Shown here one piece after another: positions 10,345-50,429 of a stretch of DNA of 64,000 nt. The notes under the pieces were generated by a model, which was given only the letters and a program-made list of their open reading frames with translations, made no database searches and had not been told where the DNA came from. Both the position numbers and the translations under genes were made by a program. Position 1 is the stretch's first letter, and every line of letters begins with the position of its first letter. This DNA comes from a virus, in the IMG/VR virus record IMGVR_UViG_3300010398_001198, positions 1 to 64,000 of that record. One strand, written 5' to 3'.

Positions 10345-10857
10345 ATGGCACTCACTCCCCAGCAACTCCAGCAACTCCAGGCCGATATTGCCGCCGACCC
10401 GGTGCTCTCGCAGGTCCCCCACACCTCGGACGGCGCGCTCGAAGTGGCGGACGCCTACAACGCCCAGGCCAGTCCCGTCTTCTGGGTCTGGAAAACCAGC
10501 CTCCTGGAGCAAGACGTGTATGAGACCACGAGCCCGGACAACACAACATGGTCATGGGCGACCTATAAAGCCCAGACTGTGCAAGATCGGGATTCCTGGG
10601 CGCGCATGTTTAATCCGGGGCTCGTCAATCCGTCCCTCCGGCAAACGCGTGACGGCTGGACCGCCATCTTTGGGGGCCAGGGCGCTTCGCTGCAGCAGGT
10701 CAATTTTCTCCTGGCGCTCGCCCGACGTCCGGCGCGGCGGATCGAGGCGCTGCTGTATGTGCCCACCCTCGGCACGGGCACACCCGCCAGCCCGGCCAAT
10801 ATGGGCTATGAGGGGACCATCAGCGGGTCCGACGTGGAGCAAGCATGGGTCAGCTAA
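10345..10857 (+). CDS. Hypothetical virion-associated protein (paralog of 44829..45422)
   Basis: WVWKTSL...TWSWATYKAQT...NPSLRQTRDGW.AIFGGQGAS shared with 44829..45422. Confidence 0.75.
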   Translation: MALTPQQLQQLQADIAADPVLSQVPHTSDGALEVADAYNAQASPVFWVWKTSLLEQDVYETTSPDNTTWSWATYKAQTVQDRDSWARMFNPGLVNPSLRQTRDGWTAIFGGQGASLQQVNFLLALARRPARRIEALLYVPTLGTGTPASPANMGYEGTISGSDVEQAWVS

Positions 10858-11606: not shown

Positions 11607-11618
11607 TGAAAGGAACTC

Positions 11619-12494
11619 ATGCCATACACGCAAGGTGTCCGCAGTCTCGCCTATGGGGCGCCGGTGAATTGGGATGCGCCGCTCAACCGGGGGCTCCAGA
11701 ACTGGTGGAAGGTGCTGCCAGGCCGGATCGGTGCGCCCACCTGGCTCGATCTCACCGGACGGATCGCCTTGCCACTGACCGGCATGTCCCCGCCCAGCAC
11801 GACGCAGGGCTTTGGCGCCACGCGGCGACCGGGGGGCCTCAGCGAACTGCGCTTTAATGGCACGACGTCGCTGGGCGCGCTCGGCAACTCGTCACTCTAT
11901 ACCAGCAGCAGTGACACGGCGCACACCTTTGCCTGCTGGTTCCTGCAATCGAGCAGCGTCGCCGAGGACGAAATGCGCATCGTCACCTGGTGCCGGGCCA
12001 CCGGCTCGACCGGCTGGGGCCTCTACACGGATACCTACAATGCCAACCCCAACCGCCTGGCCGGGCTCTACAAGACCACGGCCAATGCCCTGAGCACGTG
12101 CTACAGCACGACCACCATTGCGCTCAACACGTGGTACTTTGGCACCTGGGTGATCAGCGGCACCACCGGGACCCTGTATCTCAATGCGCACCAGGAAGGC
12201 ACCGTCAGCGATGTCGATCCCAGTGTGAGTTTTACCTCTGGTGCGTTTGCCTCCGAACTGGGACATCTCAACGGCAATGCCACCACCTACTGGCCCGGGG
12301 CACTCGATGAGGTGCGGCTGTATAACCGGGCGCTGTCGGCTGCTGACGTGGCGGCCCTGTACCTGGCCGCGCTCCAGGGCTGGCCGCAAGAACTGAGCTG
12401 GCAACTCTGGCCGCCGCTCGGGCTGCGGACGGAGACGCCGCCGCAACGTGTCTGGAGCCTGACGCAGGCCCTCCAGCGAGCGATCAATTGGTAG
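11619..12494 (+). CDS. LamG/concanavalin-A-like lectin domain protein
   Basis: HTFACWF...WYFGTWV..GTTGTLYLNA...WPGALDEVRLYNRALSAADV. Confidence 0.85.
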   Translation: MPYTQGVRSLAYGAPVNWDAPLNRGLQNWWKVLPGRIGAPTWLDLTGRIALPLTGMSPPSTTQGFGATRRPGGLSELRFNGTTSLGALGNSSLYTSSSDTAHTFACWFLQSSSVAEDEMRIVTWCRATGSTGWGLYTDTYNANPNRLAGLYKTTANALSTCYSTTTIALNTWYFGTWVISGTTGTLYLNAHQEGTVSDVDPSVSFTSGAFASELGHLNGNATTYWPGALDEVRLYNRALSAADVAALYLAALQGWPQELSWQLWPPLGLRTETPPQRVWSLTQALQRAINW

Positions 12495-17155: not shown

Positions 17156-17190
17156 GGAGCTTGCTTCTCTCACCTGTTTGCTTTTATACT

Positions 17191-17763: not shown

Positions 17764-17765
17764 GA

Positions 17766-22155: not shown

Positions 22156-22194
22156 CGTAGATTATAACATATTTTTGTGGGGAATAGAAGGATT

Positions 22195-25362: not shown

Positions 25363-25395
25363 AACATAAGTATAACATATTTTAGGACAAAAATC

Positions 25396-34807: not shown

Positions 34808-36315
34808 TGCCCTTAACTATCCTTCCGAAGGACCACATATTATCGAATGAAGTCAGCTATGTGCTCGCGGGCAATATCGTCAATGACATTAACAACATCT
34901 CCGTCTTGCGCCAGTTCCTGGAAGCGGATGCGGCGAGCCTGGCTGATCTCTACTACGCCCTTTATACGACGGTGCAAGGATGGTTCATCAATGCTGCTGA
35001 AGGGATTGATCTCGATATCCGCGGGCGGGATATGGGCCTGGCGCGGGATGTCGGTCAGGCCGCCTCGGACCTGGTGACCTATACGCCCCTTGCGACCTGG
35101 GTGGATGACATCCCATTGCCTGCCCCACTTGTGGTGCAGGCCACCCTCGCCGATGGCACCCAGGTCCTCTATCGCTCCCTGGGGGATCTCGTCCTCACGC
35201 CCTCGGGACGCAGCATCAGTGGCCAGGCCCCGGCCACCAGCCTGACCGGGGGGACCAATGACCATCTCACCCTCAACCTGGATAGTGATGGCGCGCAAAC
35301 CATCTTCCTGGGCACGCAGACCACCGCGACCGGCATTGCGGCCGCGATCCAGGCCGCCGTCCGCGCCTTGACGGCGGTGTATCCTAGCAACCAGCAGGCC
35401 TACACCGGCTTTCGCTGCGATTATGGCGTGACTACGGCGGGCGCCTACACCCTGAGGTCAGGCAGTGCGGGCTCATCGACAGCCGTCGTGGTCACGGTGG
35501 CGGCGAGTCTCGACGCCTCGCATGTCCTCAAACTCGGCCTTACCCAAGGGGGGATCGAGACAGTGGGGCAGGACGAGCTCGCCGTCCCTGTGGTCTGTGA
35601 TCAGATTGGGGTCATTGGCAATGTGGGCGCCGGCCAGATCAACACGCAGGTAAGTGCCGTTACGGGTATTGACCATATCGCCAATCCCCTCATGGTTGCG
35701 AATGGCCGCGAACCGGCGAGTGATGACGCCTACCGGCAGGATCTGCGCTCGTATCTCCTGGCGCTGGGCCGCGGGACCCAGGATAGTGTCGAGCGGGCCG
35801 TGGCGCATACCGTCAGCGCCGATGGGCAGATGCACGTCATGTCCAGCCAGGTGGTCTATGGCGCAGGGACGATCCAGGCCTATATCTGCGATGGCCGCAG
35901 TCTCACGGTGGGCGCGCAAACGGATGTGATTCAGGACGTGCAGGATGAGTTGGACGGACTCGGGCAGGAAGTCGGCGGCTGGGTGCCGAGCGGCAACGCG
36001 GCGGGCGTGGTTTCCGCCAATATTCTCACCGTCAACGTCAATGTGACCGTCACGGTCGGCCCTACGCCGGACCTGGTCAGAGCCCAAGCGGCCATCGCCA
36101 CCGTAATCTACCAGACGCTCTACCAGTGGGGTGTGGGCCAGAGTCTGTCCTATGCCCAACTGACTACCAGAATTGATGCGGCGGTGGCGGAAGTGTTTGA
36201 TGTGGTGTTTACGCTGCCCGTGGCATGGACGACCGCGCCGCCGCTCGCCATCGGCGGGGCCATCGGGCAAAAAGTGATGCCGGGGGCCATCGCCGTGCAG
36301 GTCGTGCGGGCGTAA
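34807..36315 (+). CDS. Baseplate J-like protein
   Basis: AEGIDLD.RGRDMGLAR; GNVGAGQIN; GREPASDDAYRQ.LRSYL. Confidence 0.85.
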   Translation: MPLTILPKDHILSNEVSYVLAGNIVNDINNISVLRQFLEADAASLADLYYALYTTVQGWFINAAEGIDLDIRGRDMGLARDVGQAASDLVTYTPLATWVDDIPLPAPLVVQATLADGTQVLYRSLGDLVLTPSGRSISGQAPATSLTGGTNDHLTLNLDSDGAQTIFLGTQTTATGIAAAIQAAVRALTAVYPSNQQAYTGFRCDYGVTTAGAYTLRSGSAGSSTAVVVTVAASLDASHVLKLGLTQGGIETVGQDELAVPVVCDQIGVIGNVGAGQINTQVSAVTGIDHIANPLMVANGREPASDDAYRQDLRSYLLALGRGTQDSVERAVAHTVSADGQMHVMSSQVVYGAGTIQAYICDGRSLTVGAQTDVIQDVQDELDGLGQEVGGWVPSGNAAGVVSANILTVNVNVTVTVGPTPDLVRAQAAIATVIYQTLYQWGVGQSLSYAQLTTRIDAAVAEVFDVVFTLPVAWTTAPPLAIGGAIGQKVMPGAIAVQVVRA

Positions 36316-36487: not shown

Positions 36488-38734
36488 ATGGCCGACACCC
36501 TTGCCATCTCGACCGGCGATATTCTCTCCCGGATGCTCAGGAGGCTTCCGCCGAGTCTCTGGGACACCGATCCGAGCGCCGACACGCTCCAGCGCGATCT
36601 CTTTGCCGCCATCGCGTCCCAAACTGCCGTGTGGTTGGAACAACGCGACATTGCCCGCACCATGACCTTGATGTTACAGGCCGAAGGCATTGATCTTGAC
36701 GTTTTACTTCAAGATTACGGCTTAAAAAGATATTTGCAGCTCCCGGACCCCTATGCCCGCCAGGTCGGGATGCACATCTTGTGGACCCCGCAGGGCACGG
36801 GGTATAGCGTCGCCCGGCTGGCCGATCTCCTCTTGTACAACCAGCCGCATGTCACCATGCGTACGGGCCGCAACGAGCAGCACGTCTTTGTGGCGTCGGC
36901 GCAGTCCGTCACGACTCCCTACGGCTACTGGGGCCTGGTGAGCGACGAGGGCCTGTGGTACGCCGTCACCGTGGACGGAGAAGTCCCGGTGTGCAGCCTG
37001 GCACCGCCCTGTGGGGTGGATCTCTCTCCAGGCCCGCACACGCTCAGGTGGTTCACGGTCCTCGACGAGAATGCGGCGCCCTGGTACGTCACCGTTGCCG
37101 CTGATACCCTCACCGTCTCCCAGACGCCGCCGCAGGGCTACGGCACGGCGGACCCCTTCTATGTGCTGGATGGTCACGGCAACCGCTGGGGGCTCAGTGT
37201 GGACAGCCGCAGTGAAGCCCTGGTGACGACCGTGTCTCCCGGCCTGACGACCTTTGGCTACTGGCGCGTGCGCGACCGGGCCGGCACCGTGTACGACCTG
37301 TGGATCGAGGGCGAAGTCCCCACCATCGCCACCGCACCACCCGGCGGGAGTACCGACCAGACACCGGGCGGCTCGCCCCTCGACTGGCTGAGTGTGGCCG
37401 ATGAGACCGGCACCTCGTGGTTTCTGACCCTCCAGGACGACACCCTCTTCCCACAGCGGACGTCCCCAGGCGGCACCGGCACGACCGCCGATCCCCAATT
37501 CCTTGATGCTGGCAGCCGCCTCTGGAGCCTCAGCGTGGACAGTCGCGCCGAAGCCGTGGTGAGTACGCTGCTGCGCGCGGTGACCTCGGATTACCTCGTG
37601 CTCGATCCTGGCCATGCGTATCAGGCCCTGCGGCTTGTGGACAGCAGCGGCGTGCCCTGGTGGCTCTCGATCAGTGGCGGGGCGCAGCGGCTCACCGCGA
37701 CGCAACCAGTGGGCGCCGCCGACGTGACACCGTCGGGTGGTCCCTATCGCTGGCTGCGCGTGTACGACCTGGCCGCGATGCTGTGGTACGCGTACCCGAA
37801 TACCAGTGGCACGCTCGTGGTTTCGACCACCAATCCTGGGGGTCTGGGGACGGCGCAACCGCAAACCCTAGGGGATAGCGCGGGTGTCCTCTGGCACTAC
37901 GGCGTGAGTGGCGGGGCGTTTGCCGTGAGCAGCACGCCCCCCGTCGATTATGGGGGCATGGCGACGGCGGTCTGTCTCAATGATCCGACGGGTGCCCGCT
38001 GGTTCTGGCGCGTGCACGAGGGCGCCTTGCAATGGTCAGCACAACTTTGGCCCGATACCATGGATCAAAGTCCGTGGGGCGAGCTCGGCTGGCTGCAACT
38101 CCTCAATGATGTCAGTGCGACGGTGTATGTCTCGCCTGGCGTGGCCGGCATGCCGCTGGTGACGCTCGCCCCGCCAGCCAACTCCCCCTGGGGCTGGAGT
38201 CAGCCCGTCACGCTGCGCGATGTGGAGGGGACCGCCTGGCACCTGACAGTCAGCACGCGCCCCCAGACCGTGGAGTACTGGCGGCTGCACGATGCCACCG
38301 GAACCGTGGTCTATCTCTCCATCGATGCGGAGGTACCGCTCCTGGCCGCGACGCCACCGGGCGGGGGCACGGACCAGACGCCGGGCGGGCAACCCCTCGA
38401 CTGGCTCACGATCTATGATGAAGGCGGTGGGGTCTGGTATAGCGCGGTGGAGGGGGATACGCTGACCATGACGCACACGCTGCCCCCAGGGACGGGGACG
38501 CAGGTGCCCGTGAGCCTCTGGGGCACAACAGGCATTTTCTGGCAGATCCAGGGTAGTAGCCTGACGGAGGCACTCGTCACCGTCGCCCTGCCCAGTCCCA
38601 ATGTGGTCGGCGTCGTCCAGGATGCCGCTCCAACACTGCCACTGCCGATACCGACGCTGCCACTGCGCGATGCCGTGGATGCGATTAGCCACATTCAAGC
38701 CGCTGGCTCGCTCGTGACGGTGCGGGTCAGTTAG
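36488..38734 (+). CDS. Baseplate wedge/tail protein I-like with Trp-rich repeat extension
   Basis: LDVLLQDYGLKRY...PDPYAR N-term; repeated D..G..W(Y/F/H)L modules. Confidence 0.7.
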   Translation: MADTLAISTGDILSRMLRRLPPSLWDTDPSADTLQRDLFAAIASQTAVWLEQRDIARTMTLMLQAEGIDLDVLLQDYGLKRYLQLPDPYARQVGMHILWTPQGTGYSVARLADLLLYNQPHVTMRTGRNEQHVFVASAQSVTTPYGYWGLVSDEGLWYAVTVDGEVPVCSLAPPCGVDLSPGPHTLRWFTVLDENAAPWYVTVAADTLTVSQTPPQGYGTADPFYVLDGHGNRWGLSVDSRSEALVTTVSPGLTTFGYWRVRDRAGTVYDLWIEGEVPTIATAPPGGSTDQTPGGSPLDWLSVADETGTSWFLTLQDDTLFPQRTSPGGTGTTADPQFLDAGSRLWSLSVDSRAEAVVSTLLRAVTSDYLVLDPGHAYQALRLVDSSGVPWWLSISGGAQRLTATQPVGAADVTPSGGPYRWLRVYDLAAMLWYAYPNTSGTLVVSTTNPGGLGTAQPQTLGDSAGVLWHYGVSGGAFAVSSTPPVDYGGMATAVCLNDPTGARWFWRVHEGALQWSAQLWPDTMDQSPWGELGWLQLLNDVSATVYVSPGVAGMPLVTLAPPANSPWGWSQPVTLRDVEGTAWHLTVSTRPQTVEYWRLHDATGTVVYLSIDAEVPLLAATPPGGGTDQTPGGQPLDWLTIYDEGGGVWYSAVEGDTLTMTHTLPPGTGTQVPVSLWGTTGIFWQIQGSSLTEALVTVALPSPNVVGVVQDAAPTLPLPIPTLPLRDAVDAISHIQAAGSLVTVRVS

Positions 38735-38743
38735 GAGGATAGA

Positions 38744-39796
38744 ATGCCGCACATGCTCGCGCAGCAACATCAGGGCATTTACGACTGTATCCGGGCCGGC
38801 ACGGCCCGGACACATACCACGATCAGTGCAGCGCTCACGGCGATTGGCAGTACCCCAACGATGCTGGTGCTGACCTTTGCCGGGGATGGTATCTGGAGTA
38901 TCGGCGCCAACCTGACGATTCCCACGACCATTACCCTGATGATCCCGCCGGGGGTGACGGTGAACGTGGCGGCGGGGATCACGCTGACCATCAATGGCGC
39001 GTTCCTGAGCTACAATACCGGCTGGAAAACCGGGACCGGCACCGTGGCCCAGACCCTGATTACCTCCCATCTCTCCAGCGGGGTGACGGCCAATACGTTT
39101 CTCGCCCAGCCGGGCGCCGCGACCGGGATAGGGGTGGTCGTGGAGAATGGTCCCGCCTCGACGGCGGCCCGCGTGCGCCTCTTCACCGATCAAGGCGGTG
39201 GACAGTCGGGCCTCCAGATCAGCACCAATGATGCGGCGGCCAATATCCAGGGCTGGCAGATCATCGTGGGGGGCGGCGGCTCGCTCGCCTTTGCCCGGCC
39301 AGGTGGGAATTCGATGATGCTCCTCAGCAATACCGGCTTAGGCATTGGCCTGGGGCAAGTCCCCGGCGGCTTGCTGCAACTGCTCAGCGATAGCGCCTAC
39401 AAGCCCGGGGCTGGGGGGCTCTGGAGTATTCCCTCCTCGCGGGCGCTCAAAGACATCACCGGGGACTATACGGAAGGTCTGGTCCTGCTGCGGCGCTTGC
39501 CCCAGGCGGTCCGCTTTCGCTATAACGGGAAGGGCGGCACCGAGGTGGATGGCCCTGCGGACGTGGGCTTTGTGGCGGAGGACCTCCAGGCCGTCGCGCC
39601 GCAACTGGTACGCGAGGTGGTCAATCCGCACGCCGAGGAGGAACCGGACCTGCCCACCATGCTGGCCACCAATCTGGGCGAGATCCTCTACGTGCTCATC
39701 AACGCCGTGCTCGAACTCGACCGCCGTGGGGGTGGGACTGCCGAAGAGGCCCAGGCTGCACCAGTGCCGCCGCAGCGGCGCCGGAGGACCGCCTGA
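38744..39796 (+). CDS. Tail fibre with C-terminal intramolecular chaperone (peptidase S74-like)
   Basis: SSRALKDI.....GL..LRRL..AVRFRY...GFVAEDLQAVAPQLV. Confidence 0.85.
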   Translation: MPHMLAQQHQGIYDCIRAGTARTHTTISAALTAIGSTPTMLVLTFAGDGIWSIGANLTIPTTITLMIPPGVTVNVAAGITLTINGAFLSYNTGWKTGTGTVAQTLITSHLSSGVTANTFLAQPGAATGIGVVVENGPASTAARVRLFTDQGGGQSGLQISTNDAAANIQGWQIIVGGGGSLAFARPGGNSMMLLSNTGLGIGLGQVPGGLLQLLSDSAYKPGAGGLWSIPSSRALKDITGDYTEGLVLLRRLPQAVRFRYNGKGGTEVDGPADVGFVAEDLQAVAPQLVREVVNPHAEEEPDLPTMLATNLGEILYVLINAVLELDRRGGGTAEEAQAAPVPPQRRRRTA

Positions 39797-40075: not shown

Positions 40076-40105
40076 TTGACACCCTCACAGTCTCTCCTAT
40101 ATCAT
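40076..40105 (+). promoter_or_regulatory. Sigma70-type promoter TTGACA-N18-TATCAT
   Basis: Consensus -35 and near-consensus -10 in intergenic gap. Confidence 0.65.
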
Positions 40106-40112: not shown

Positions 40113-40158
40113 GCGTGTGGAAGTCGGCCGTAAGGCTCGGCATCCACACGCTTTTTTT
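40113..40158 (+). terminator. Leader terminator/attenuator hairpin
   Basis: gcgtgtgga...tccacacgc + T7. Confidence 0.7.
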
Positions 40159-40310
40159 CTGTGTGAGTCTTGCTCACCTGTCGGTCGACTTCTGGACGCA
40201 CGTTGCAATCAGCGCATGGTCCCATGACGGCCCGCGCTGGTTGACTTCCACGCGCCCCCCTTCCGGTTGCGTAGGCTGGAAGGGGGATATACCCGCCTGG
40301 AGGACAGCAC

Positions 40311-40685
40311 GTGCTGCGTTTCTTCCTCTCTGCACTCCTCCTTGGTCTGCTTCCCACGCTGGTGGATGCCCAGTGTCCGGACCTCACCACGCCGCAAAGC
40401 CCCTTTGCCAAAGAGCCGCTGCTGGTCTCCTCGACCCCGGTGGCCCTGACCGCCTCGATCTATAAGCCGGCGGGCATCATTCCCACCATGGCGGTGGTGA
40501 GTGTGGAGGGCGGCGCCATTCGCTATGAGGTCGTCGGAGCGCCGACGGCCACGACCGGTCACCCGATTGCTGGGACGCCCCCGCAAACCTTTCCCATCTG
40601 TGGCCTGGACTCGATTGCCGCCTTTCAAGCCGTGCGCCAGAGCCAGGACGCGCAACTCTTCATTACCTACTACCGTGCGAAATAG
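40311..40685 (+). CDS. Signal-peptide beta-sandwich protein
   Basis: LRFFLSALLLGLLPTLVDA-Q; GGAGG RBS. Confidence 0.7.
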   Translation: MLRFFLSALLLGLLPTLVDAQCPDLTTPQSPFAKEPLLVSSTPVALTASIYKPAGIIPTMAVVSVEGGAIRYEVVGAPTATTGHPIAGTPPQTFPICGLDSIAAFQAVRQSQDAQLFITYYRAK

Positions 40686-40695
40686 GAGCCGTCGC

Positions 40696-43600
40696 ATGCC
40701 GCGCCGCCTCATCTGGCTGTTGAGTCTGCTGCTCGTGCTCCAGCCCGTGGGCCTCGTCGCGCAGGTTCTGCCTCCGCTTGCGCCGGCAGGGGGCGGCAGT
40801 ACCCCGACCTTTCCCGGCTCCCTGTGTACCGATATGGTGGCCATCGGCCAGGACACCGCCGGGCTGATGGTGTGTTCTCCTGTCTTGCCACCCATGGCGC
40901 CAGGGCTGGTGCCGAGTGGAGGGGATGTCAGCGCCAGCGGCCAGGTCCTCCAGACGCACCTGAGTAGCCCCTTGCCTGTCCCCCAGGGCGGGATGGGGCT
41001 CACCACCGGCACATCCGGCGGCATGCCCTACTTCAGTAGTGCCACCACACTGGCCTCGACGCCGACCTTTGCCCTCAATGCGCCCATCCTGGGCGGGGGT
41101 GCAGGCCAATCGCCCGTGCCGGGCACGCTCTCGGGGACGACCCGCGAACTCGCCAGTGTCACCGGTGCACATGTTCCCAACCGCCAGCTGACCTTTGACG
41201 CCAACGGCAACGTGATTGCCAGCCCCTATGACGTCATAGGCGGGGTCCAGGTCCTCAGCGTGTTCGGACGCATCGGGGCGGTCACGGCGCAAAGTGGTGA
41301 CTACACGGCGGCGCAAGTGACACATGCGGCCTCCCTCACCGCCGCCAATGTGTTTACGGATCCTGGGGGCCAGACCATGCCCCTGCTGGCCCTGACCGGC
41401 TCCAGTAGCGGTACGCTCTATGTACGGGCGCCGGCCGCGGCAGGCGTCTCCCTGGTGGTGCTCCCGGCGGGGGTGAGTGATTTCTCGTCGACCGGCGGCC
41501 CGAGTCAGGTCGTGCAGCAGACCACCACGGCAGGGGCGTTCACGGTGAGTCGCCTGAGCCTGGCTGATCTCGCCGATGGGGGGAATGCCTGCACCAGTGC
41601 CAGCCTGTGCCCAGGCTATCAAGCCGCGCTGGGGTTTCCGCCGGAAAACGTCAGCAACAAAACCTCGGACCCGGCGCTCGGGGGCAGTGATTTCCTCTAT
41701 CCCACCCAGGCCGCGGTCAAAGGCTACGTGGATGCCGGGCTGGCGGGGAAGCAAGCCCTCCTGGGCTTTGCGCCGGAAGACCGCGCCAACAAAGCCTCCA
41801 GCGCCGTGCTGGGGACGAGTGACACCCTGTATCCGACCCAGAATGCCGTCAAGGCCTATGTCGATACGGGCCTGGCCGGCAAGCAGGCGAGCCTGGGCTT
41901 CACGCCGGAAAACGTCACCAACAAAGCCACCGCGACCGCCTTAGGGACCAGCAACACGCTCTATCCCACGCAGAACGCGGTCAAGGTCTACGTCGATACT
42001 GGGCTGTCGAGCAAGCAAGACACTCTGGGCTTTACGCCGGAAACCACTGCCAACAAGGCCACCGGGACCACCCTGGGGACGAGTGATACCTTTTACCCCT
42101 CCCAAAATGCCGTCAAGGTCTACGTGGATGCGGCCATTGCGACGGTCCAGGGCAGTATTACCTGGGGGCCGGGCCTCACCTTCAGCGGTGGCGTGGCCAG
42201 TGTCGCCTCGACGGAAACGGGCTTTCTGACGGGCGCCAGCAGTGCCCTCGCGTGCGGGGCCTCGGCGCAGGGCAAGATGCAGGTCCTCGACACTGGCGCG
42301 CTCCAGTACTGCGATGGGGCCACGACGGCCCTGCTCCACAGTGGCTTCCTCACGCAGAGTGGTCTCACCTGGAATGTCACCCCGAGTGCCTGTACGGGCG
42401 ATACCAATGGCGGCAAGCTGACCATTGTGGGCACGGAAATCCGCTGCGCCTCGGACATCGGCGGCACGGGCGGGGCGGGGGGCGTCACCAGCGTGTTCGG
42501 GCGCACCGGCGCGGTGGTGGCCACCGCCGGAGATTATCTGGTCAGCCAGATTACCAACGCTGTCGATGTCACGGCGGCCAACGTCTTTCCGCACGCCAGC
42601 GGCCAGTCGATGCGGCAACTGCTCCTGCCTGGGGCGACCTCGGGAACGCTGACGGTCAAAGCGGCGGCGGTGGCCGGCAGCAGTACGTTGACCTTGCCGG
42701 CGGGGGCGACGGATTTCAGCAGTACAGGCGGTGCGGGGCAAGTGGTGCGCCAGAACGCGGCGGGGGGCGCGCTCACGGTCGCGGCCCTGGCCTTTAGCGA
42801 CCTCACGGGGACCGGCGCGGTGTGTACCACCGCCGGCGTCTGCACGGGCTACCAGGCGACCATCACGTGGGGTGCCGGGCTCAGCGTCACGGGCGCGACC
42901 GCCAGTGTGGCCTCGACCGAAGCAGGCTTCCTCACCACGGGCAGCACGGACCTCACTGCGGGGGCCGGACAAGCCGGGAAGATGCAGGTGATCGCCGATG
43001 GGCGCCTGCAATACACCGATGGCGCCGCGACTCCGCTCCTGCGCCAGGGCTATCTCCTCACCCCCCTGGGCGGCCCGGGCGTGCTCCAGGCGAGTACGGG
43101 GGGCACGAGTCTGGCGGCCTTTGCGGGGAGTGCCTGTAACGATCCTGCGGCGTTTATGACCGGCCTGACGCCCACCGGCGATGCCATCTGCGGCCTCCCT
43201 GCAGCGCTGGTCTTCAGCAGTCGAGCCCTGCTGGCGACGGCGAGCGCGACCTTTCCCAGTGCCGTCAATCTCGGTGCCCTGGCCGGCGGCATCGTCAAAA
43301 CCACCGTCAGCGGGGGTCTGGCGAGCGTGAGTACCGTGATCGCGCCGACGAGCGCCCTGGTGGGGGTGGACGATCCGCAGATCCTCACCCAGAAAGGGGT
43401 GGCGCCGCGTGCCGCCCCATTTGCCGGCGTCTCCCCCGTGGTTGGGAATCTGAGTACCACGGATCTCCTCGTCGTGAGCGGGCTCACCGGGTCCACGCTG
43501 ATCGGCAATCCGCAAGGCGCCACCAGTGCCGGCGGGCTGGTGCGACTCCAGGTGACCTCCGCCACGCCACAACCCCTGACCTGGGATACCCTGTGGAGTA

Positions 43601-44829
43601 GCGAGGGAGGCTCCCCCCTGCCCACGACCACGACCGGCGGCAGCACCTATGACATGTTCTGGTTCCAGTACAACGCCACCTCCGGCAAGCTCGATCTCGT
43701 CTACAACTCGCAACTCATGCAGTGGACCCTCCCCACGGGTGTCACGCCGGGGACCTATACCTGTCCGGGCTCCGTGACGATTGATAGCCGGGGCCGGGTG
43801 ACGGCCATCGCCAACGGCACATGCGGCGGGGGCACGGGAGGCACCCCAGCGGGAGGTGTCGGCGATGTCCAGATCAACGGCGGCGGGGTCCTGGCCGCTG
43901 ATCCCGGCGATTTCGCCTATGACGTGGGCACGAAAACGTTGATCGCCCCGCACCTCCTTGGCTCGCGTCGGCGGACCTATGCCACCTTCCGCGATCTCCA
44001 GGGCCAGGCCACGTATGTGCTCGCCCCGGCCATGCAGAGTAAGGTGCACGTGCAGTCCCTGCCGGATGAGGACGGGGAATACTGCGTTAAGGGGGGGAGC
44101 TGCTTTGCCAGCGGCGGGGTCACGGTCTCCGGTACCCCGACGGCTGGACAAACGGCGGAATTTACCGCGGCGAGCGTGATCCAGGGCGTGAGTACCACGG
44201 GCAGTGGCAGCTATGTCAAGGCCGGGAGCCCGACCCTGACGACCCCCACCATTGCGGCCCTAGCGAATCTCACCAGCAATGGGGTGCTCACGACGAGTGG
44301 GGGCACGGGCACGCTCGTGGTGGATACGGGGGGCACAACCGGCACGGGGGCCTGGGTGAAGGGGACGAATCCGACTCTGACCGGGCCGACGATTGCCGCG
44401 CTGGCGAACCTGACGACCAATGGCATTCTCACCACGACGGGGGGGACGGGTACGCTCGTGGTCGATACGACCACCCGCACCGTCGAGACCGGCGTGCAGT
44501 CCCTCACGTCGAGTACCACCTATACCTGTGTGCGTAATGGCCCGAGTACCCAACCAGTCATGAATGAATGCACCATGACCTACACCGGGGCTGCCGGGGC
44601 CACGGTGACCATCGGCACCTCGGGGACACTCCAGGACGGCGATCGCTTTCTGGTGCGTCTGCGCTGCACGGTGGGGGCGCAGACCATCGCCTACGGCGCC
44701 AATATTATCAATAGCCTGCAAATCATTGGGCCGACGAGCTGCCCGCTCGACGGTGCCCGCGAAATTGTCATAGGACTTCTCTATTCTGCGGCACTCGCCA
44801 AGGCCCAGGTCATTGGGAGTACGAACTAA
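40696..44829 (+). CDS. Giant signal-peptide, tail-fibre-like repeat protein (~1377 aa)
   Basis: MPRRLIWLLSLLLVLQPVGLVA-Q; VFGRTGAV motifs; four GFTPEN.ANK...YPTQNAVK.YVD repeats. Confidence 0.8.
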   Translation: MPRRLIWLLSLLLVLQPVGLVAQVLPPLAPAGGGSTPTFPGSLCTDMVAIGQDTAGLMVCSPVLPPMAPGLVPSGGDVSASGQVLQTHLSSPLPVPQGGMGLTTGTSGGMPYFSSATTLASTPTFALNAPILGGGAGQSPVPGTLSGTTRELASVTGAHVPNRQLTFDANGNVIASPYDVIGGVQVLSVFGRIGAVTAQSGDYTAAQVTHAASLTAANVFTDPGGQTMPLLALTGSSSGTLYVRAPAAAGVSLVVLPAGVSDFSSTGGPSQVVQQTTTAGAFTVSRLSLADLADGGNACTSASLCPGYQAALGFPPENVSNKTSDPALGGSDFLYPTQAAVKGYVDAGLAGKQALLGFAPEDRANKASSAVLGTSDTLYPTQNAVKAYVDTGLAGKQASLGFTPENVTNKATATALGTSNTLYPTQNAVKVYVDTGLSSKQDTLGFTPETTANKATGTTLGTSDTFYPSQNAVKVYVDAAIATVQGSITWGPGLTFSGGVASVASTETGFLTGASSALACGASAQGKMQVLDTGALQYCDGATTALLHSGFLTQSGLTWNVTPSACTGDTNGGKLTIVGTEIRCASDIGGTGGAGGVTSVFGRTGAVVATAGDYLVSQITNAVDVTAANVFPHASGQSMRQLLLPGATSGTLTVKAAAVAGSSTLTLPAGATDFSSTGGAGQVVRQNAAGGALTVAALAFSDLTGTGAVCTTAGVCTGYQATITWGAGLSVTGATASVASTEAGFLTTGSTDLTAGAGQAGKMQVIADGRLQYTDGAATPLLRQGYLLTPLGGPGVLQASTGGTSLAAFAGSACNDPAAFMTGLTPTGDAICGLPAALVFSSRALLATASATFPSAVNLGALAGGIVKTTVSGGLASVSTVIAPTSALVGVDDPQILTQKGVAPRAAPFAGVSPVVGNLSTTDLLVVSGLTGSTLIGNPQGATSAGGLVRLQVTSATPQPLTWDTLWSSEGGSPLPTTTTGGSTYDMFWFQYNATSGKLDLVYNSQLMQWTLPTGVTPGTYTCPGSVTIDSRGRVTAIANGTCGGGTGGTPAGGVGDVQINGGGVLAADPGDFAYDVGTKTLIAPHLLGSRRRTYATFRDLQGQATYVLAPAMQSKVHVQSLPDEDGEYCVKGGSCFASGGVTVSGTPTAGQTAEFTAASVIQGVSTTGSGSYVKAGSPTLTTPTIAALANLTSNGVLTTSGGTGTLVVDTGGTTGTGAWVKGTNPTLTGPTIAALANLTTNGILTTTGGTGTLVVDTTTRTVETGVQSLTSSTTYTCVRNGPSTQPVMNECTMTYTGAAGATVTIGTSGTLQDGDRFLVRLRCTVGAQTIAYGANIINSLQIIGPTSCPLDGAREIVIGLLYSAALAKAQVIGSTN
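41632..42135 (+). repeat. Four ~123-bp (41-aa) in-frame tandem repeats, fibre-shaft type
   Basis: LGF(P/A/T)PE...NK...LG.SD.LYPTQ.AVK.YVD. Confidence 0.85.
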
Positions 44830-45422
44830 TGTCTCTCATTGTTCTCTTCCTCCTGCTGCTGCCAGGCCTCGTCGCGGCACAAGGCTTGACTGATGTCCAG
44901 TACACCCTCTTGCATGACGACATCACGATTACGCATGCGAGCGAGTTCCAAGCCTCGGTCGCTGCCGCCGATTATCAACCGATAGCCGATGCGTACAATC
45001 TCCTGGCCACTGGCCCCTTCTGGGTATGGAGGACAAGTTTAACCCCGAAGGAGATCTATGAGGCGACGGCGGACGGCGGCGGCACCTGGTCGTGGAGCAC
45101 CTATAAGGCGCAGACCCAGCAGGAACGCGACGCATGGCGCGATATGATGGCCCCCAACTTGCTCAATCCCAGTCTCAAACAGACGCGAGATGGCTGGCTC
45201 GCCATCTTCGGGGGACAAGGGGCTAGTCAGGTCCAGGTCAATTATCTCCTTGCCCTGTCCAGGCGCCAGGCCCGGCGGGGGGAAGCCCTGCTGGCCACGA
45301 CCACGAGCGGGAATGGCTCAACAGCGACCCCTGCCACCTTGACGTATGAGGGTCTGATCACCTGGATTGACGTCAACCACGCGGTCAGCGGCGCGCCGCT
45401 TCCTGGAGGGCCACGTCCATGA
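44829..45422 (+). CDS. Signal-peptide paralog of 10345..10857
   Basis: MSLIVLFLLLLPGLVAA-Q; shared TWSWSTYKAQT, NPSLKQTRDGWLAIFGGQGAS. Confidence 0.8.
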   Translation: MSLIVLFLLLLPGLVAAQGLTDVQYTLLHDDITITHASEFQASVAAADYQPIADAYNLLATGPFWVWRTSLTPKEIYEATADGGGTWSWSTYKAQTQQERDAWRDMMAPNLLNPSLKQTRDGWLAIFGGQGASQVQVNYLLALSRRQARRGEALLATTTSGNGSTATPATLTYEGLITWIDVNHAVSGAPLPGGPRP

Positions 45423-46000
45423 TCAGGCGGCTTGTCATCCTGCTGCTCTGTGCGCTGCTCCTGTGGACCTCGGGTGTCGGGGCCGCCACGTCCTTGCAGT
45501 ACACCCTGCCGGGGACCGGGATTACCTTTGGCGACTCCGGGCAGAATGTCCTGATGGTGTTTAGCAACAAAGCCACGGGCACCGGCACCGTCAGCGCCCA
45601 GTATGACAAGAATGCGTTGGCGACGGCCACCGGGGCCATGCCCTCCCTGTGGGCACTCCATTGTCAGATCTCGTTCACCGGCACCAATGTCGTCGGAGCC
45701 ACGGCGGAATTGTACATTGCCCATGCGGACGCCGCCGGCACCACTCAGGATGGCGCGGTTGGGCAGAGTAGTACCACCATCACCAGCGATCAGCGCCGCG
45801 TGCTGACGCCCGTGGGCGTGCTCTCGACGTACCAAACGGCCACCAATACGACCATGTACGCGAGTTTCCGCAACATTTATATTCCCGGCAGATACTTCAG
45901 TTTGGCCTGGTGGAATGCCACTGGGCTCACCAGTGAAACGAGCACGACCAAGCATAAGTGCACGATGTACCCCATGCCCATTCAAGGCCAAGGAACCTAG
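45419..46000 (+). CDS. Signal-peptide beta-rich protein
   Basis: MIRRLVILLLCALLLWTSGVGA-A. Confidence 0.7.
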   Translation: MIRRLVILLLCALLLWTSGVGAATSLQYTLPGTGITFGDSGQNVLMVFSNKATGTGTVSAQYDKNALATATGAMPSLWALHCQISFTGTNVVGATAELYIAHADAAGTTQDGAVGQSSTTITSDQRRVLTPVGVLSTYQTATNTTMYASFRNIYIPGRYFSLAWWNATGLTSETSTTKHKCTMYPMPIQGQGT

Positions 46001-46004
46001 CCCT

Positions 46005-46898
46005 ATGCGCCAGCTTCTGAAGCTCCTCCTCTTCCTCTGTGCTCTGCTCCTCGTGGCGGTCTGTGTGCTGGCACAGCAGAACCCCCAGGTCGTCCTGAGT
46101 GATCCGCTCCTGCGCGGGGCGGTGTCCTGGTGGCGTCCGCTCCTCGGCTTCACGGGGGGGGATCGCCTCTTTGACCTCTTGCCGGCCCAAAACCACCTCA
46201 CCCTCACCAACATGAGCCTGGGAAGCACGTCCGGCTGGAGTCCCACGACGCGGCCCGGGGGCGTGGCGCAGATCAACTGCGACGGGACGGATGACTATCT
46301 CAGCATCCCCAACAACAGCTCGTTCAATCTGAGCGCGGGGTCCCTGGTCGTGTGGGCCATGCGGACCAGCACGGCGGCGGAGATGATCATTGTCTCCATG
46401 AGTGATGGGGGCCTGTGCTGTAACAATTTGCTCGCGCTCGAGTGGAAAAACAATACTAGTGACACCCTACGGATCTTGATCACCAGCGGCGGGGTCGATC
46501 AACTCGTGGTCTCGACCACCTCGACCACGATTGCGCCGGCCAACGTCTGGCATCACCTCGCCTTCACCGTGGACAGCAGCGGCAATGCCCTCTATGTCGA
46601 TGGCGTGCAGGCCGCGATGACGTATGGGACGGGCACCGCAAGCACCACGGCGTTTTTCTCGACCATCTATAGTGCGGCCACCACGTTTGATGTCTGCCGC
46701 ATGAATACCACGGATGCCCCCGCCTATCTGACCGGCGCGATTGCCCAGCTCACGCTCTACAACCGGGCACTCACGGCGGGGGAGGTGATGGCCCACTATC
46801 AGCGCTCCCAGGGCCTGCCGCCCATGGGGCTGCGGGCGGATGAGCTCGTGGCCAGTACCACGTTTCCCACTGGGACCTTGTTGCCTTTTTTCCCCTAA
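46005..46898 (+). CDS. Signal-peptide LamG-like lectin (paralog of 11619..12494)
   Basis: MRQLLKLLLFLCALLLVAVCVLA-Q; WHHLAFTVD...LYVDG...LYNRALTAGEV. Confidence 0.85.
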   Translation: MRQLLKLLLFLCALLLVAVCVLAQQNPQVVLSDPLLRGAVSWWRPLLGFTGGDRLFDLLPAQNHLTLTNMSLGSTSGWSPTTRPGGVAQINCDGTDDYLSIPNNSSFNLSAGSLVVWAMRTSTAAEMIIVSMSDGGLCCNNLLALEWKNNTSDTLRILITSGGVDQLVVSTTSTTIAPANVWHHLAFTVDSSGNALYVDGVQAAMTYGTGTASTTAFFSTIYSAATTFDVCRMNTTDAPAYLTGAIAQLTLYNRALTAGEVMAHYQRSQGLPPMGLRADELVASTTFPTGTLLPFFP

Positions 46899-46909
46899 GG
46901 AGATCGCTC

Positions 46910-48406
46910 ATGCGACGACTACCTCTCCTCCTCACTCCCCTGCTCCTCTGGTGTGCCCTCGCCTCGGCGCAGGGGCCACAATCGGTCCCCGGCGTCAACT
47001 CACTCCCTAACGATACTAGTACAGGTACTATTATCAACCGCTTGGCCAAAATCGTTCCGGGTGGCGCTGGGGGCCAGGGCAAGCTCATTCTACCTGCGCC
47101 CACGGATACGCAGATCAAGCTCTATGTGGTCATCGCGGGGGCGGGCACCACCGGGAATGCCCTCTATGTCGAAATCGGCGATGCGGCCTGCGAGATGGAT
47201 AACGCCGTGACGAGCAAGGCCGGCACCTATATCGTCCACGGCACCACGCCAGATGGCGCGGGCAAATACGGTCGCTGCCATCAGGTGGACACCAACCCCT
47301 CCCCTGGGATGGTCATGGGGTCACTGCTCACGGACAATACCGTAGTCGGCGGTCTCGCCCGTATCAGCGCCCAGAACCAGGCGTTTATTCCCGGCTCTGG
47401 GACTGGCACAGGTTCAGTGACGAGCGTCGATGTGACGATGGCGCCGGAGTTCACCAAGACCGGTGGCCCGATCACGGCGGCAGGCACCATCGCCTTCACC
47501 AAAGCGACCCAAACCGCGAACCTGGTCTATGCGGGTCCGGCCTCTGGCGGGGCCACTGCGCCCACCTTTCGTGCCCTGGTGGTGGCCGACCTCCCGGCAG
47601 GCACCGCCTCTGGCAGTTGCGGCGGGGATCTGGGCAGCACGTTTCCGAACTGTACCGTCCTCAAGGCGAGTAGCACGTTTGCCCTGGCGGGGGAGAATGC
47701 CCCGACCGCCCTGGTAGCCGATGTCAATGATTATGTCCTCCCCAGCACCTTTGCAGCCCTCCTCAACGGTGGTGCTGCTGACCGCAACATTACCGGCTTT
47801 GCGGCCCCAGCCCAGGGTGGCGATACCAAGGCGATCTGCAATGTCGGCACGACCAATGCCTTAGTCTTGAAGAACCAGAGTACCGGCTCGGCGGCGGCCA
47901 ATCGCATCCTGGCCACGGATGACGTGACCCTGCCGCCCGATCTGTGCACGCTGCTCCGATACACGACCACCGCGCCCGCTCGCTGGCGACCCCTGGTGAA
48001 CAAACTGCCGGATTATCTCTCTGCGCGCCCGTTCTCCATGCAAATTGGTGATCCGGACCCGACCAGCCCCACGTTGATCGCGGGCAACGATAGTCCTGGA
48101 GGCTGGACGAATCTCTACCGGCGCCAGGTCCAGATTCTGGCCATCGCGTGTATGGGCGATGCGGGGGCCACGACGATTAACCCGATCCTGCGCGGCGGTA
48201 CGGCCACAAGTCTCCTGACGACGCCGTGTACGTGCGGTAACGCGGTTTTTGCCGGGTGCTCCCTGAACGGCCTGCCCCTCGTCAACCCGGCCACTGCCGC
48301 AGGGGCTACGTGTACTACTACACCTTGTAGTATCGACCTGAACATTAACACGGTCGATAACGTCACGCGCCAGGTGACGATTAATGTGGACGCCATTATT
48401 AAATAA
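46910..48406 (+). CDS. Signal-peptide tail-fibre-like protein
   Basis: MRRLPLLLTPLLLWCALASA-Q; GSVTSVDV, PTFRALVVADLP, GGDLGSTFPN motifs. Confidence 0.75.
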   Translation: MRRLPLLLTPLLLWCALASAQGPQSVPGVNSLPNDTSTGTIINRLAKIVPGGAGGQGKLILPAPTDTQIKLYVVIAGAGTTGNALYVEIGDAACEMDNAVTSKAGTYIVHGTTPDGAGKYGRCHQVDTNPSPGMVMGSLLTDNTVVGGLARISAQNQAFIPGSGTGTGSVTSVDVTMAPEFTKTGGPITAAGTIAFTKATQTANLVYAGPASGGATAPTFRALVVADLPAGTASGSCGGDLGSTFPNCTVLKASSTFALAGENAPTALVADVNDYVLPSTFAALLNGGAADRNITGFAAPAQGGDTKAICNVGTTNALVLKNQSTGSAAANRILATDDVTLPPDLCTLLRYTTTAPARWRPLVNKLPDYLSARPFSMQIGDPDPTSPTLIAGNDSPGGWTNLYRRQVQILAIACMGDAGATTINPILRGGTATSLLTTPCTCGNAVFAGCSLNGLPLVNPATAAGATCTTTPCSIDLNINTVDNVTRQVTINVDAIIK

Positions 48407-48428
48407 GGGAACAAAAAAGAGGTGCATT

Positions 48429-50429
48429 ATGTGGTCTCTCCTCCTCCTGCTCGCGCTCCTGCTCCTGCCATTTCCTAGTACTGCTAAGACTATATGGGTG
48501 GCCACGTCGGGCGGCAACGATGGGAATTCCTGTACGGCGGCCCAGACCAACACCACGCCCAAAGCCACCATCACGGCGGGCATCGGCTGCCTCGTGGGCG
48601 GCGACACGCTCATTGTGAAAAGCGGCACGTATGCCGAGGCGATCAAAGACACGATCCCGGCAGGCAGTGCGGGGGCGCCCACGACTGTCAAAAGCGAGGT
48701 GCAATACGGCGCCGTGATCAAGCCCAGTTGCTCGGGCTCTGGCCCGCCCTCGGGGTGTGACGTGGTGCTCTATGGCCAGTGTACCATCGTGGCCATTGAA
48801 AAGAGCCACATTGTGTTTGATGGCTTTACCGTAGACGCGGCCAATGCCAATACCGACTGCCGCATCATGATCGACATGGGGGGCTACCATCCCTCGACCG
48901 ACATCGTGGTCCAGAACAACGATGTCGTAGGCCATTGCCCGGATAAAAACTCTGGCTCCAACTGCCTCGGCATGAGTACACACACCGACACGAGTAACGT
49001 CACCGTACGGGGCAATAAAGTCCATGACATTGGGTGGGGCGCACTGCAAAACTGTAACAGCGGTCCCCCCCCCTGTAACAATTTCAACGCCTACTGCACC
49101 TACCTCACCTTTCATGACTCGATCATCGAAAACAACGAGTTCTACAATTGCAGCGGCTATGCCGTTCAGATGTGGTCGTCGGGCTCGCCCACCGATCCCA
49201 CGGGGCCAGACCGCAGTATCATCCGGGGCAATTATGCCCATGATGTCGGCCTCTCCTGTTTCCTCGTGGCGTCGGGGGATGGCCAGCAGGTCTACAACAA
49301 CATCGCGGTCAACTGTGGCAAGTTTTTTGACAGCAGCACCGGCAATACGGTGACCATTCACAGTAGTGCCCGGGGCCTCAACCTCGGCAATTCTGGGCTC
49401 AGCACGACCAACCTCAAGGCGCACTACAATACCGTGGTCGGGAGCACGGGCTATTGTGTCTCCTCCGGGATTGATGCCGGGGGCATTGTCCGCGACACGA
49501 TCTGCTACCAGAACGGGACGAACGGCATCAACACGGTGAGTGGCGTGGCGCCCGTCGCGGATCATAACCTGTTTGGCACCAATCCGCTGTTTACCAACCT
49601 CGGGGATACCCCCTATCAGTTGAGCACCGGCAGTCCCGCCCTCGATACCGGCATCTGTGTGAGCGGGATTGCGAGCGACAAACTCGGTGCGGTCCGCCCC
49701 CAACCCACCGGCGGATCGTGTGATATTGGCGCCTACGAAGGCACCGGAGGGACCGCCCCCACCCCCCCTAGTCTGCTCGCCTGGTGGAAGCTCAATGACG
49801 GCACCGGCACCAGCGCGAGCGATAGCACCGGCAACGGGCACACCGCCACCTGGACGACCGGCCTCACCTGGCAGCCAGGGAAGGTCGGCAGCAAAAGTCT
49901 GGGCTGTGATGGCGTGAATGCCACGACGGTCACCGGCGGGCTCCCGACCACCGCGCCGTACAGCTATGTGTTCTGGATTCAAGGCACGACCACGCCGCCG
50001 ACCTCGGGCAATAATCAGATTGTCGTCCACAATGGCGACACCTCGGATTCCTTTGGCTTTGCCTGGGGCTCGCCGACGACCGGTTTTGACCAGGCAGCGT
50101 ACACGCAAGACGCCAGTGGGAATTACATCGCCGTGCGCCTCACCACGCCCTTACAGGCAGGCCAGTGGTATCACGTCGGCGTGACGTTCGACAACACCAC
50201 CCTGCGCATCTACCTGAATGGCGTCCAGCAAAGCACCGCCGCCGTGACGACCATGAAGGGCGCGACCGGGGACTTCCACTTCTGCGGCACCCCGGCGGGC
50301 ACCAGCACGTATTTCGCCGGCCAGCTCGACGAGGTGAAGGTCTGGAACTACGCCCTCACGGCGGCGCAGGTGCTCCAGGAGTACCGCAGCACCGTGGCGA
50401 GTGTGCGGCACCGCAGTGTGCACCCCTGA
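48429..50429 (+). CDS. Signal-peptide right-handed beta-helix (pectin-lyase-like) + LamG protein
   Basis: WVATSGGND...PKATI..G; Asn/Cys ladders; LSTGSPALDTG...CDIGAYE; LAWWKLNDGTG...WYHVGVTFD...LDEVKVWNYAL. Confidence 0.85.
   Translation: MWSLLLLLALLLLPFPSTAKTIWVATSGGNDGNSCTAAQTNTTPKATITAGIGCLVGGDTLIVKSGTYAEAIKDTIPAGSAGAPTTVKSEVQYGAVIKPSCSGSGPPSGCDVVLYGQCTIVAIEKSHIVFDGFTVDAANANTDCRIMIDMGGYHPSTDIVVQNNDVVGHCPDKNSGSNCLGMSTHTDTSNVTVRGNKVHDIGWGALQNCNSGPPPCNNFNAYCTYLTFHDSIIENNEFYNCSGYAVQMWSSGSPTDPTGPDRSIIRGNYAHDVGLSCFLVASGDGQQVYNNIAVNCGKFFDSSTGNTVTIHSSARGLNLGNSGLSTTNLKAHYNTVVGSTGYCVSSGIDAGGIVRDTICYQNGTNGINTVSGVAPVADHNLFGTNPLFTNLGDTPYQLSTGSPALDTGICVSGIASDKLGAVRPQPTGGSCDIGAYEGTGGTAPTPPSLLAWWKLNDGTGTSASDSTGNGHTATWTTGLTWQPGKVGSKSLGCDGVNATTVTGGLPTTAPYSYVFWIQGTTTPPTSGNNQIVVHNGDTSDSFGFAWGSPTTGFDQAAYTQDASGNYIAVRLTTPLQAGQWYHVGVTFDNTTLRIYLNGVQQSTAAVTTMKGATGDFHFCGTPAGTSTYFAGQLDEVKVWNYALTAAQVLQEYRSTVASVRHRSVHP

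Follow-up and report, generated by a model that had tools for sequence, protein, structure and literature searches.

The 64,000-nucleotide stretch analyzed here (the window) comprises the opening 64 kb of one virus contig of 122,663 bp, IMG/VR record IMGVR_UViG_3300010398_001198. It carries a cassette of seven consecutive genes, g1 to g7, that encode fiber-like, lectin and depolymerase-like proteins and that all begin with a predicted signal peptide. We conclude that the seven proteins are very probably exported by the Sec pathway and carry disulfides. Export is well supported because the signal peptides are kept while their sequences drift, because the cysteines are paired and conserved, and because one cysteine pair in g4 tracks the presence of the signal peptide. 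As to function, we tentatively favor a free-standing apparatus that would act at or in the envelope of the producing cell and in the lysate, rather than a built-in part of the virion, and we put the probability of this reading at roughly 0.4.

All seven genes run in the same direction, one directly behind the other, on the + strand (40311-50429), with gaps or overlaps of no more than 23 nt, and each is a long open frame; together they encode 3352 amino acids (aa). Translation of g1 starts at a GTG codon and that of the other six at ATG, and a Shine-Dalgarno-like motif precedes all seven starts by 6-11 nt. Read by eye, each N-terminus shows a short basic n-region, a leucine-rich uncharged h-region of at least 10 residues, and a small-x-small cleavage site. 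The predicted sites, which are our own reading of the -3/-1 positions, are LVDA/QC (g1), GLVA/QV (g2), LVAA/QG (g3), GVGA/AT (g4), CVLA/QQ (g5), LASA/QG (g6) and PSTA/KT (g7). An earlier note on this DNA, made from the sequence alone, had assigned a signal-type N-terminus to each gene, and the ribosome-binding sites, the n-h-c layout and the small-x-small sites bear out all seven of these starts. The [LVI][ASTVI][GAS]C lipobox is absent from all seven N-termini, the cysteine of g1 coming only after A-Q. We also considered and rejected Tat export: a twin arginine occurs in just three of the seven, homologs exchange lysine and arginine freely, and the peptides are 17-23 aa long with leucine-rich h-regions.

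Of the roughly 140 genes of the 122.7-kb genome, a crude scan for hydrophobicity and cleavage sites picked out 24, including six of the cassette genes (g1 is absent from the crude gene set). The flagged genes outside the cassette lie mostly in a type IV secretion system (T4SS) region, to which is added a 130-aa gene at 18880-19272. By our own arithmetic the chance of seven flagged genes in a row is about 0.17^7 per position; seven signal-bearing genes in a row are far beyond what is expected by chance. The 130-aa gene sits in the head-tail morphogenesis block, lacks a family match, and has a signal-peptide-like start, MRSVVCCVLLCALGTGGLVHA/Q.

Behind their signal peptides, the proteins have bodies of the kinds found in phage fibers and lectins. 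The earlier note had described fiber-shaft repeats, LamG lectin domains and beta-helices; the repeats in g2 and the LamG domains of g5 and g7 stand, the latter above threshold, whereas the beta-helix of g7 is matched only below it. The fiber-like g2 contains four tandem 44-aa repeats (residues 312-490; LGFxPExxxNK...YPTQNAVKxYVD) and two large repeats. Its C-terminal ~600 aa are common to six homologs at 37-53% identity, while the N-termini differ, and the homolog in contig L001 has almost no N-terminal domain. The Laminin_G_3 family (PF13385; cut-off 27.6 bits) matches g5 with 75.3 bits (E 7.6e-21) and g7 with 84.6 bits (E 1e-23). With Beta_helix (PF13229; cut-off 25.9 bits), g7 reaches only 23.1 bits; its counterpart in L005 matches Pel9A-like_beta_helix, and a weakly g7-like extra protein in L006 matches Beta_helix. 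The protein g7 looks like a depolymerase.

For g4 and g6, folds were compared through structure models. The AlphaFold2 model of g4 (predicted local distance difference test score, pLDDT, 94) is a jelly-roll of the kind seen in carbohydrate-binding modules (CBM), TNF and the Eph ligand-binding domain. The g6 model (pLDDT 76) comprises a signal helix, a beta domain at residues 28-158, a poorly modeled linker and a C-terminal beta domain, and its best Foldseek matches are tailspike N-termini, T4 gp9, phage tail fibers, and jelly-roll cement or head-fiber proteins. The N-terminus of g2 is a repeat-like region, unlike the beta-rich domain of g6. Pfam searches found no S74 domain in any of the seven proteins, and a sequence search of the PDB gave no match for g6 or g2 and nothing but a LamG-type match for g7.

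Table 1. Positions in the window of the cassette genes, their leader elements, signal-less paralogs and neighboring tail genes.
Feature	Position	Strand	Description
g1	40311..40685	+	124 aa; predicted signal peptide; small protein; 2 mature Cys
g2	40696..44829	+	1377 aa; predicted signal peptide; long fiber-like protein; 20 mature Cys
g3	44829..45422	+	197 aa; predicted signal peptide; no Cys; virus-only family
g4	45419..46000	+	193 aa; predicted signal peptide; jelly-roll (CBM/TNF-like); 2 mature Cys, predicted disulfide C82-C181
g5	46005..46898	+	297 aa; predicted signal peptide; LamG (concanavalin-like) lectin domain; 4 mature Cys
g6	46910..48406	+	498 aa; predicted signal peptide, ~130-aa beta-rich domain, fiber-repeat linker, Cys-rich beta domain; 12 mature Cys
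g7	48429..50429	+	666 aa; predicted signal peptide; right-handed beta-helix-like body; C-terminal LamG; 20 mature Cys
Sigma-70-type promoter	40076..40105	+	TTGACA-18-TATCAT; 11/12 consensus positions
Promoter-proximal intrinsic terminator	40113..40158	+	hairpin GCGTGTGGA...TCCACACGC, then T7; -28 kcal/mol
Second leader hairpin and g1 ribosome-binding site	40254..40303	+	hairpin CCCCCCTTCCGG...CTGGAAGGGGG; GGAGG
g3' (signal-less g3 paralog)	10345..10857	+	head-proximal block; 60% identity over 134 aa, E 4e-55
g5' (signal-less LamG paralog of g5)	11619..12494	+	29% identity over 262 aa, E 2e-18
Sheath	22177-24288		contractile-tail module
Probable tube gene	25291-25830		by size and position only, no family match
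Probable tape-measure gene	25868-28195		by size and position only, no family match
Hub protein with SLT domain	29050-31143		contractile-tail module
LysM protein			contractile-tail module, listed between hub and baseplate J
Baseplate J	34807-36315		contractile-tail module
Ordinary signal-less fiber genes	36488..39796	+	directly upstream of the cassette; 748-aa protein and 350-aa S74 fiber
350-aa fiber with S74 chaperone domain	38744-39796	+	

The cysteines of the cassette proteins form patterns that fit an oxidizing environment. All seven mature proteins have an even number of cysteines (Table 1), and the cassette as a whole contains 1.9% cysteine against 0.84% for the head and tail genes. In g2, the 20 cysteines form ten close pairs with spacings of 6-26 residues; in the C-terminal region these pairs are mostly kept in the six homologs, and every homolog has an even count. 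Both members of pair 1023/1043 are gone in two homologs, and there are two single-residue differences as well. In g6, nine of the 12 mature cysteines are invariant or nearly so.

The g4 family links such a pair directly to the signal peptide. An exhaustive HMMER search of 1.84 billion representatives yielded 181 clusters, and we used the 131 full-length members. The family splits into signal-bearing proteins of ~180-200 aa and signal-less proteins of ~160-170 aa, and the signal-less members start exactly at the conserved mature N-terminus, (M)A-x-K-x-Y, right after the predicted cleavage site. Cysteines 82 and 181 are both present in 37/41 signal-bearing members and in 1/90 signal-less ones. 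In a phylogeny of the mature part, calculated with cysteines masked, the signal-bearing state changes five times, compared with about 35 times when labels are shuffled, and one supported clade is signal-bearing in 31 of its 33 members. Export to an oxidizing compartment would be expected to bring a new disulfide together with the signal peptide, and this pattern supports export.

These data also bear on the possibility that nothing is exported, and that the N-termini are instead uncleaved anchors, oligomerization helices or mis-called starts of ordinary cytoplasmic fibers. AlphaFold2 does model the N-termini of g4 and g6 simply as helices, and the signal peptides are predicted from our reading of the sequence. 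Against this, the Shine-Dalgarno sites back the starts, and the n-h-c pattern and small-x-small sites are kept despite drift. Moreover, signal-less homologs begin at the predicted mature N-terminus, the g4 cysteine pair co-varies with the extension, and the g2 cysteine pairs are conserved, one of them being absent as a whole pair in two homologs. We consider this explanation highly improbable. The earlier note had proposed an exported fiber or adhesin assembly; its export is supported by the conserved signals, the cysteine pairing and the g4 covariation, and its destination, which could be the periplasm, the cell surface or the virion, and its purpose are conjecture.

Signal-less counterparts of several cassette proteins occur both in other phages and in this genome. 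We found signal-less g4 at 37 IMG/VR loci, often with a g3-like gene directly upstream and a LamG gene directly downstream, all without signal peptides. In L016 this trio comes behind small head-tail genes and a capsid gene of HK97 type, and in L015 it closes the structural block and adjoins an integrase. In the ESM Atlas, g3 and g4 fall into clusters made up of viruses alone, and the proteins in some of these have the shorter length typical of signal-less members. The window itself encodes two signal-less paralogs (g3' and g5'; Table 1), and the alignment of g5' with g5 begins just past the g5 signal peptide. This genome thus appears to keep cytoplasmic and predicted exported copies of at least two parts (g3 and g5). 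Because signal-less counterparts exist in other phages and signal-less paralogs in the same genome, the exported cassette appears to be a derived edition of ordinary cytoplasmic phage proteins.

Three further observations concern these loci. A 253-aa cysteine- and histidine-rich gene lies between g3' and g5'. We examined a 153-aa gene at 12508-12969 as a g4 paralog and rejected it, as it has no detectable likeness to g4. In L015, a family-2 glycosyltransferase and a Wzt-type O-antigen ABC transporter ATPase (9352-11649, - strand) follow the structural block next to the integrase; they could serve surface-glycan conversion or belong to host flank.

We found the cassette again in six further metagenomic contigs (L001, L002, L004, L005, L006 and L051), five with phage genes and one a short fragment, giving seven contexts in all. 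These relatives carry most or all of the cassette in near-identical order at 33-75% identity, and nearly all of their homologs have their own diverged signal peptide, the sole exception being the L001 g3 homolog as called. For g1, signal-bearing homologs are found in L005 (51% identity) and L006 (62%), and L001 has a similar small signal-bearing gene. A search of 5.8 billion proteins returned 34 full-length homologs of g6 (37-89% identity), all metagenomic; scans of IMG/VR and Joint Genome Institute metagenomes for g6 returned only one short partial match, which appeared twice on a single contig, and one small contig. Among 16 aligned members of the g6 family, the signal peptide and its AQG site are fixed in position and the h-region sequence drifts.

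The phages that carry the cassette span podovirus-, siphovirus- and myovirus-like tails. We classify L001/L011 as podovirus-like because they encode a coat protein of P22 type, a gp10-like protein and large SLT-containing proteins of the ejection type, and L004/L010 resembles them. L002 is siphovirus-like because of its 1712-aa GpJ-like protein. In L005 the cassette comes after a GpA-type terminase, and L006 mirrors the window, with an S74 fiber followed by g1; the same S74 fiber precedes the cassette in L006 and L002. The g7 slot varies, being filled by pectate-lyase-like proteins (L004, L051), Pel9A-like proteins or extra beta-helix proteins. Overall, the cassette appears to be a conserved, mobile phage module. 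A few kilobases downstream of the cassette in L005 lies an IS605 OrfB/TnpB (Cas12f-like) gene (16912-18003, - strand).

The position of the cassette provides part of the case for a different destination, in which the seven proteins are virion parts that mature in the periplasm. A phage clade with three tail types would then form the disulfides of its receptor-binding fibers, tailspike and lectins in the periplasm, and these would dock to cytoplasm-built virions only at or after lysis, as additional or principal receptor-binding fibers, as tailspikes or as decoration. In five of six phage contigs, across the three tail types, the cassette occupies the slot of receptor-binding proteins behind tail or ejection genes. 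The C-terminus of g2 is conserved while its N-terminus varies with the phage backbone, as if fitted to the particle; g6 resembles tailspike N-terminal adaptors, T4 gp9 and head-fiber or cement jelly-rolls; signal-less relatives lie in structural modules; and the leader described below suggests late expression. On the other side, we found no tailed-phage precedent in the literature. Signal-less fibers lie directly upstream of the cassette and signal-less g3 and g5 paralogs are already present; the L001 g2 homolog has almost no N-terminal docking domain; the operon is a separate transcription unit; and parts assembled after lysis would be quickly diluted. We regard this virion-part explanation as possible but doubtful. 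If it is correct, it would represent a two-compartment assembly pathway that is new for tailed phages, whose particles and fibers are generally regarded as products of cytoplasmic assembly alone.

The cassette is preceded by its own control region. A 257-bp gap separates the last tail-region gene (whose stop codon ends at 40053) from g1, and it contains a near-consensus promoter, an intrinsic terminator and a second hairpin next to the g1 ribosome-binding site (Table 1). This bears out the promoter and leader of the earlier note. An imperfect palindrome, CTCCTATATCATAGGAG, overlaps the -10 element and is unique in the 122-kb genome; the terminator starts about 1 nt after the likely transcription start, and strong sites of this hairpin-plus-T-run kind number only three in that genome, this one included. 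Because neither the palindrome nor the leader terminator motif occurs elsewhere in the genome, we found no shared operator. The leader folds with a z-score of -5.4 relative to shuffled sequences. In L006, a TTGACA promoter lies at the same place, the terminator hairpin and T-run are kept with changed stem bases, and the second hairpin is present as well.

A terminator placed directly after a promoter suggests that full expression probably needs an antiterminator, that is, that the cassette is expressed late. The lambda PR'-tR' region, in which a strong, constitutive-type late promoter is closely trailed by an intrinsic terminator and Q antitermination governs entry into the late structural operon, has the same promoter-terminator order; in the cassette, the terminator lies about 1 nt past the likely start, and we identified neither a gene like Q nor a Q-binding element. 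Downstream of g7 we saw no clear terminator.

The leader also bears on the suggestion of lysogenic conversion in the earlier note. An own promoter, as a moron would have, is present, but a terminator directly follows it and the GC content of the cassette (0.60-0.68) is comparable to that of its surroundings. Because a promoter plus terminator leader resembles late antitermination control, the cassette fits a lysogenic-conversion moron less well. That the element is a prophage, with a lysogen as its host, was an assumption: the record is a virus contig with no host flanks in view, though it does include an integrase.

Export, signal cleavage, disulfide formation, expression timing, destination and target are all things that we infer, and we propose that they combine as follows. 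Transcription would start at the strong sigma-70-type promoter and be carried through the terminator late, by an antiterminator. The products would be exported via Sec, with removal of their signal peptides, and disulfides would stabilize them in the periplasm, the host being a diderm. There they would constitute an extracytoplasmic edition of ordinary phage receptor-binding hardware, with g2 as a long fiber, g6 as a fiber- or adaptor-like protein, g5 as a LamG lectin, g4 as a jelly-roll binding protein, g7 as a beta-helix depolymerase-like protein with LamG, and g1 and g3 as small partners. The set would bind or cut envelope glycans that are also the targets of the phage's ordinary, signal-less fibers, so that receptors on the infected cell and on debris would be masked or destroyed, as by T5 Llp; it might also be displayed as adhesive surface fibers, as in Bdellovibrio. 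This free-standing apparatus fits the genome because cytoplasmic and exported paralogs coexist in it.

Signal-bearing accessory proteins are known from other phages. T5 Llp and lambda Lom, Bor and Cor have Sec-type signals, are encoded beside tail-fiber genes, and act on the envelope of the producer; T5 Llp masks the receptor and shields progeny from debris. These are single small lipoproteins or outer-membrane proteins, whereas the cassette encodes seven virion-type fiber, lectin and depolymerase bodies.

Several observations weigh against a free-standing envelope apparatus. In a diderm, Sec by itself delivers proteins to the periplasm only, and the cassette includes no outer-membrane anchor, lipobox, beta-barrel, usher or secretion-system gene; we read no sorting signal in the C-termini of its products. 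The LamG family shows no conserved cysteines linked to the signal peptide. In L011 and L010, the cassette stands where a tailspike gene is expected, no other fiber gene can be seen there, and the interval from the ejection-type proteins to the cassette shows no signal-less fiber, which favors virion parts. Because signal-less homologs sit in structural blocks, the ancestral role of these proteins was probably in the virion. Finally, 10 kb of DNA and a 1377-aa fiber shaft are a heavy investment for receptor masking.

Among the closest described systems are the mosaic adhesive trimer (MAT) fibers of the predator Bdellovibrio bacteriovorus. They are encoded by scattered chromosomal genes and stand on a diderm surface, and their signal peptide is followed by a beta-rich N-domain of ~130 aa, a trimeric fiber and an adhesive tip; 13/21 end in S74 (PMC10769870). 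In g6 the parts follow this order too (signal peptide, beta domain of ~130 aa, fiber, tip), which is a likeness of architecture, and the cassette is likewise mosaic, with a variable enzymatic slot. It differs in being one phage operon with LamG and jelly-roll partners, in which no member has an S74 domain and the neighboring S74 fiber is signal-less. Cassette proteins showed no sequence or fold match to solved MAT tips.

Ordinary receptor-binding modules of tailed phages, made up of tail fibers, tailspikes and branched adaptors such as CBA120 TSP4 and T4 gp9/gp10, likewise share features with the cassette: fiber repeats, beta-helix and lectin domains, fold matches, a variable enzymatic slot, gene position behind baseplate or ejection genes, and g3, g4 and LamG homologs that are signal-less in many phages. 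Such modules are signal-less and assembled in the cytoplasm, whereas every cassette member has a predicted signal peptide. The earlier note knew of no described system of this form; the MAT fibers are similar enough to qualify that statement, and it holds for phages to the extent that our literature search turned up no phage operon in which an entire fiber, lectin and depolymerase set is signal-bearing. Nor did it turn up a sister-clade switch from signal-less to signal-bearing proteins with a gain of disulfides.

The cassette is of interest because an entire receptor-binding gene set, and not one small moron, has apparently been moved outside the cytoplasm. This relocation appears to be old, to recur across three tail types, and to be accompanied by new predicted disulfides. 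If the set acts at the envelope, it would be a large phage-borne counterpart of MAT-type fibers, or a case of receptor masking in which the phage reuses adhesins of its own. The g4 family, with one sister clade bearing signals and the other lacking them, offers a clean natural experiment on how a protein adapts to a change of compartment. The cassette also suggests a testable rule for phage genomes, namely that a signal peptide together with paired cysteines marks exported fiber proteins. It could in addition serve as a source of disulfide-stabilized glycan binders and depolymerases.

The fold of g4 raises the possibility that the set is associated with lysis or release, in the manner of PBSX XepA, and weakens or clears envelope and matrix polymers near lysis. 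The XepA N-domain (6i56_D) is, narrowly, the best of the wide fold matches to g4 (Z 9.9, rmsd 3.0 over 108 residues), g7 and its counterparts, including the pectate-lyase-like proteins of L004 and L051, are depolymerase-like, and the leader suggests late expression. XepA is described as an exported protein of the phage-like element PBSX, encoded in a prophage lytic cassette (PMC6834076). It is a pentameric dumbbell from the lysis cassette of a monoderm host, and the g4 match is marginal and covers only one small domain. The match also stands barely above those to unrelated CBM and TNF jelly-rolls (Z 8-9.4), the cassette includes no holin or endolysin, and long fibers are unnecessary for lysis. 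We therefore judge a lysis-associated role to be very unlikely.

A final alternative arises from the genome downstream of the cassette. Just past the window, at contig positions 64317-83375, lies an F-like T4SS with a TrbI/TraB-like protein, a 935-aa TraC, TraU and a TraD-type coupling protein; the same region shows a weak, sub-threshold TraK_C match, a lipoprotein-like gene and an Integrase_1-type recombinase. In L004, a different T4SS type (VirD4, VirB4/TrbE and an S26 TraF-like peptidase) lies about 4 kb from the cassette. Both elements are candidate conjugative phages or phage-plasmids. The exported receptor-binding copies could then be mating adhesins that help the T4SS to hold recipients, and the presence of virion-type and exported paralogs in one genome would suit such a role. 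The T4SS here is, however, 14 kb away beyond an oppositely transcribed block, no T4SS occurs within 10 kb downstream of the cassette in L005 or L006, and no other g6-bearing contig could be paired with a contig bearing a TraC or VirD4 homolog, which is a weak test. There is also no known route by which the proteins would reach the surface, and our literature search on conjugative phages gave nothing relevant. We consider mating adhesins quite unlikely.

The host of these elements is probably diderm, because both T4SS types have outer-membrane-complex genes. Neither the g6 profile nor the TraC profile matched anything when scanned against 185,579 species genomes. The one named lead, a Candidatus Tectimicrobiota metagenome-assembled genome with a TraC 45% identical, was set aside as too weak to name a host. 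Among GenBank phages we found no match to g2 or to a signal-less g4 homolog, and only distant relatives of the sheath.

The genome has a GC content of 63%, and the window contains neither a terminal repeat nor a tRNA. A contractile-tail module lies upstream of the cassette and ends in ordinary signal-less fiber genes (Table 1), and the remaining contig encodes a terminase with a LAGLIDADG insert, a D5-type primase, the integrase and the F-like T4SS. In the large terminase (Terminase_6C; contig 119120-122137, L009 15120-18137), a LAGLIDADG_3 domain lies mid-protein, as an intein or inserted endonuclease would; the TraC homolog P0101 in another sequence likewise has a LAGLIDADG insert. A 311-aa CxxC-rich protein is encoded on the opposite strand between the sheath and probable tube genes (24377-25312, - strand), within a dip in GC content at 24-26 kb (local 0.52 versus 0.63 for the genome), and its gene looks like an inserted homing-endonuclease-type gene. 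At the start of the window (80-240), a direct run of GTTTTAA-like heptamers is followed by inverted CTTAACC heptamers, and a terminator made of a strong hairpin plus T7 (~190-235) lies just ahead of an ATG at 251.

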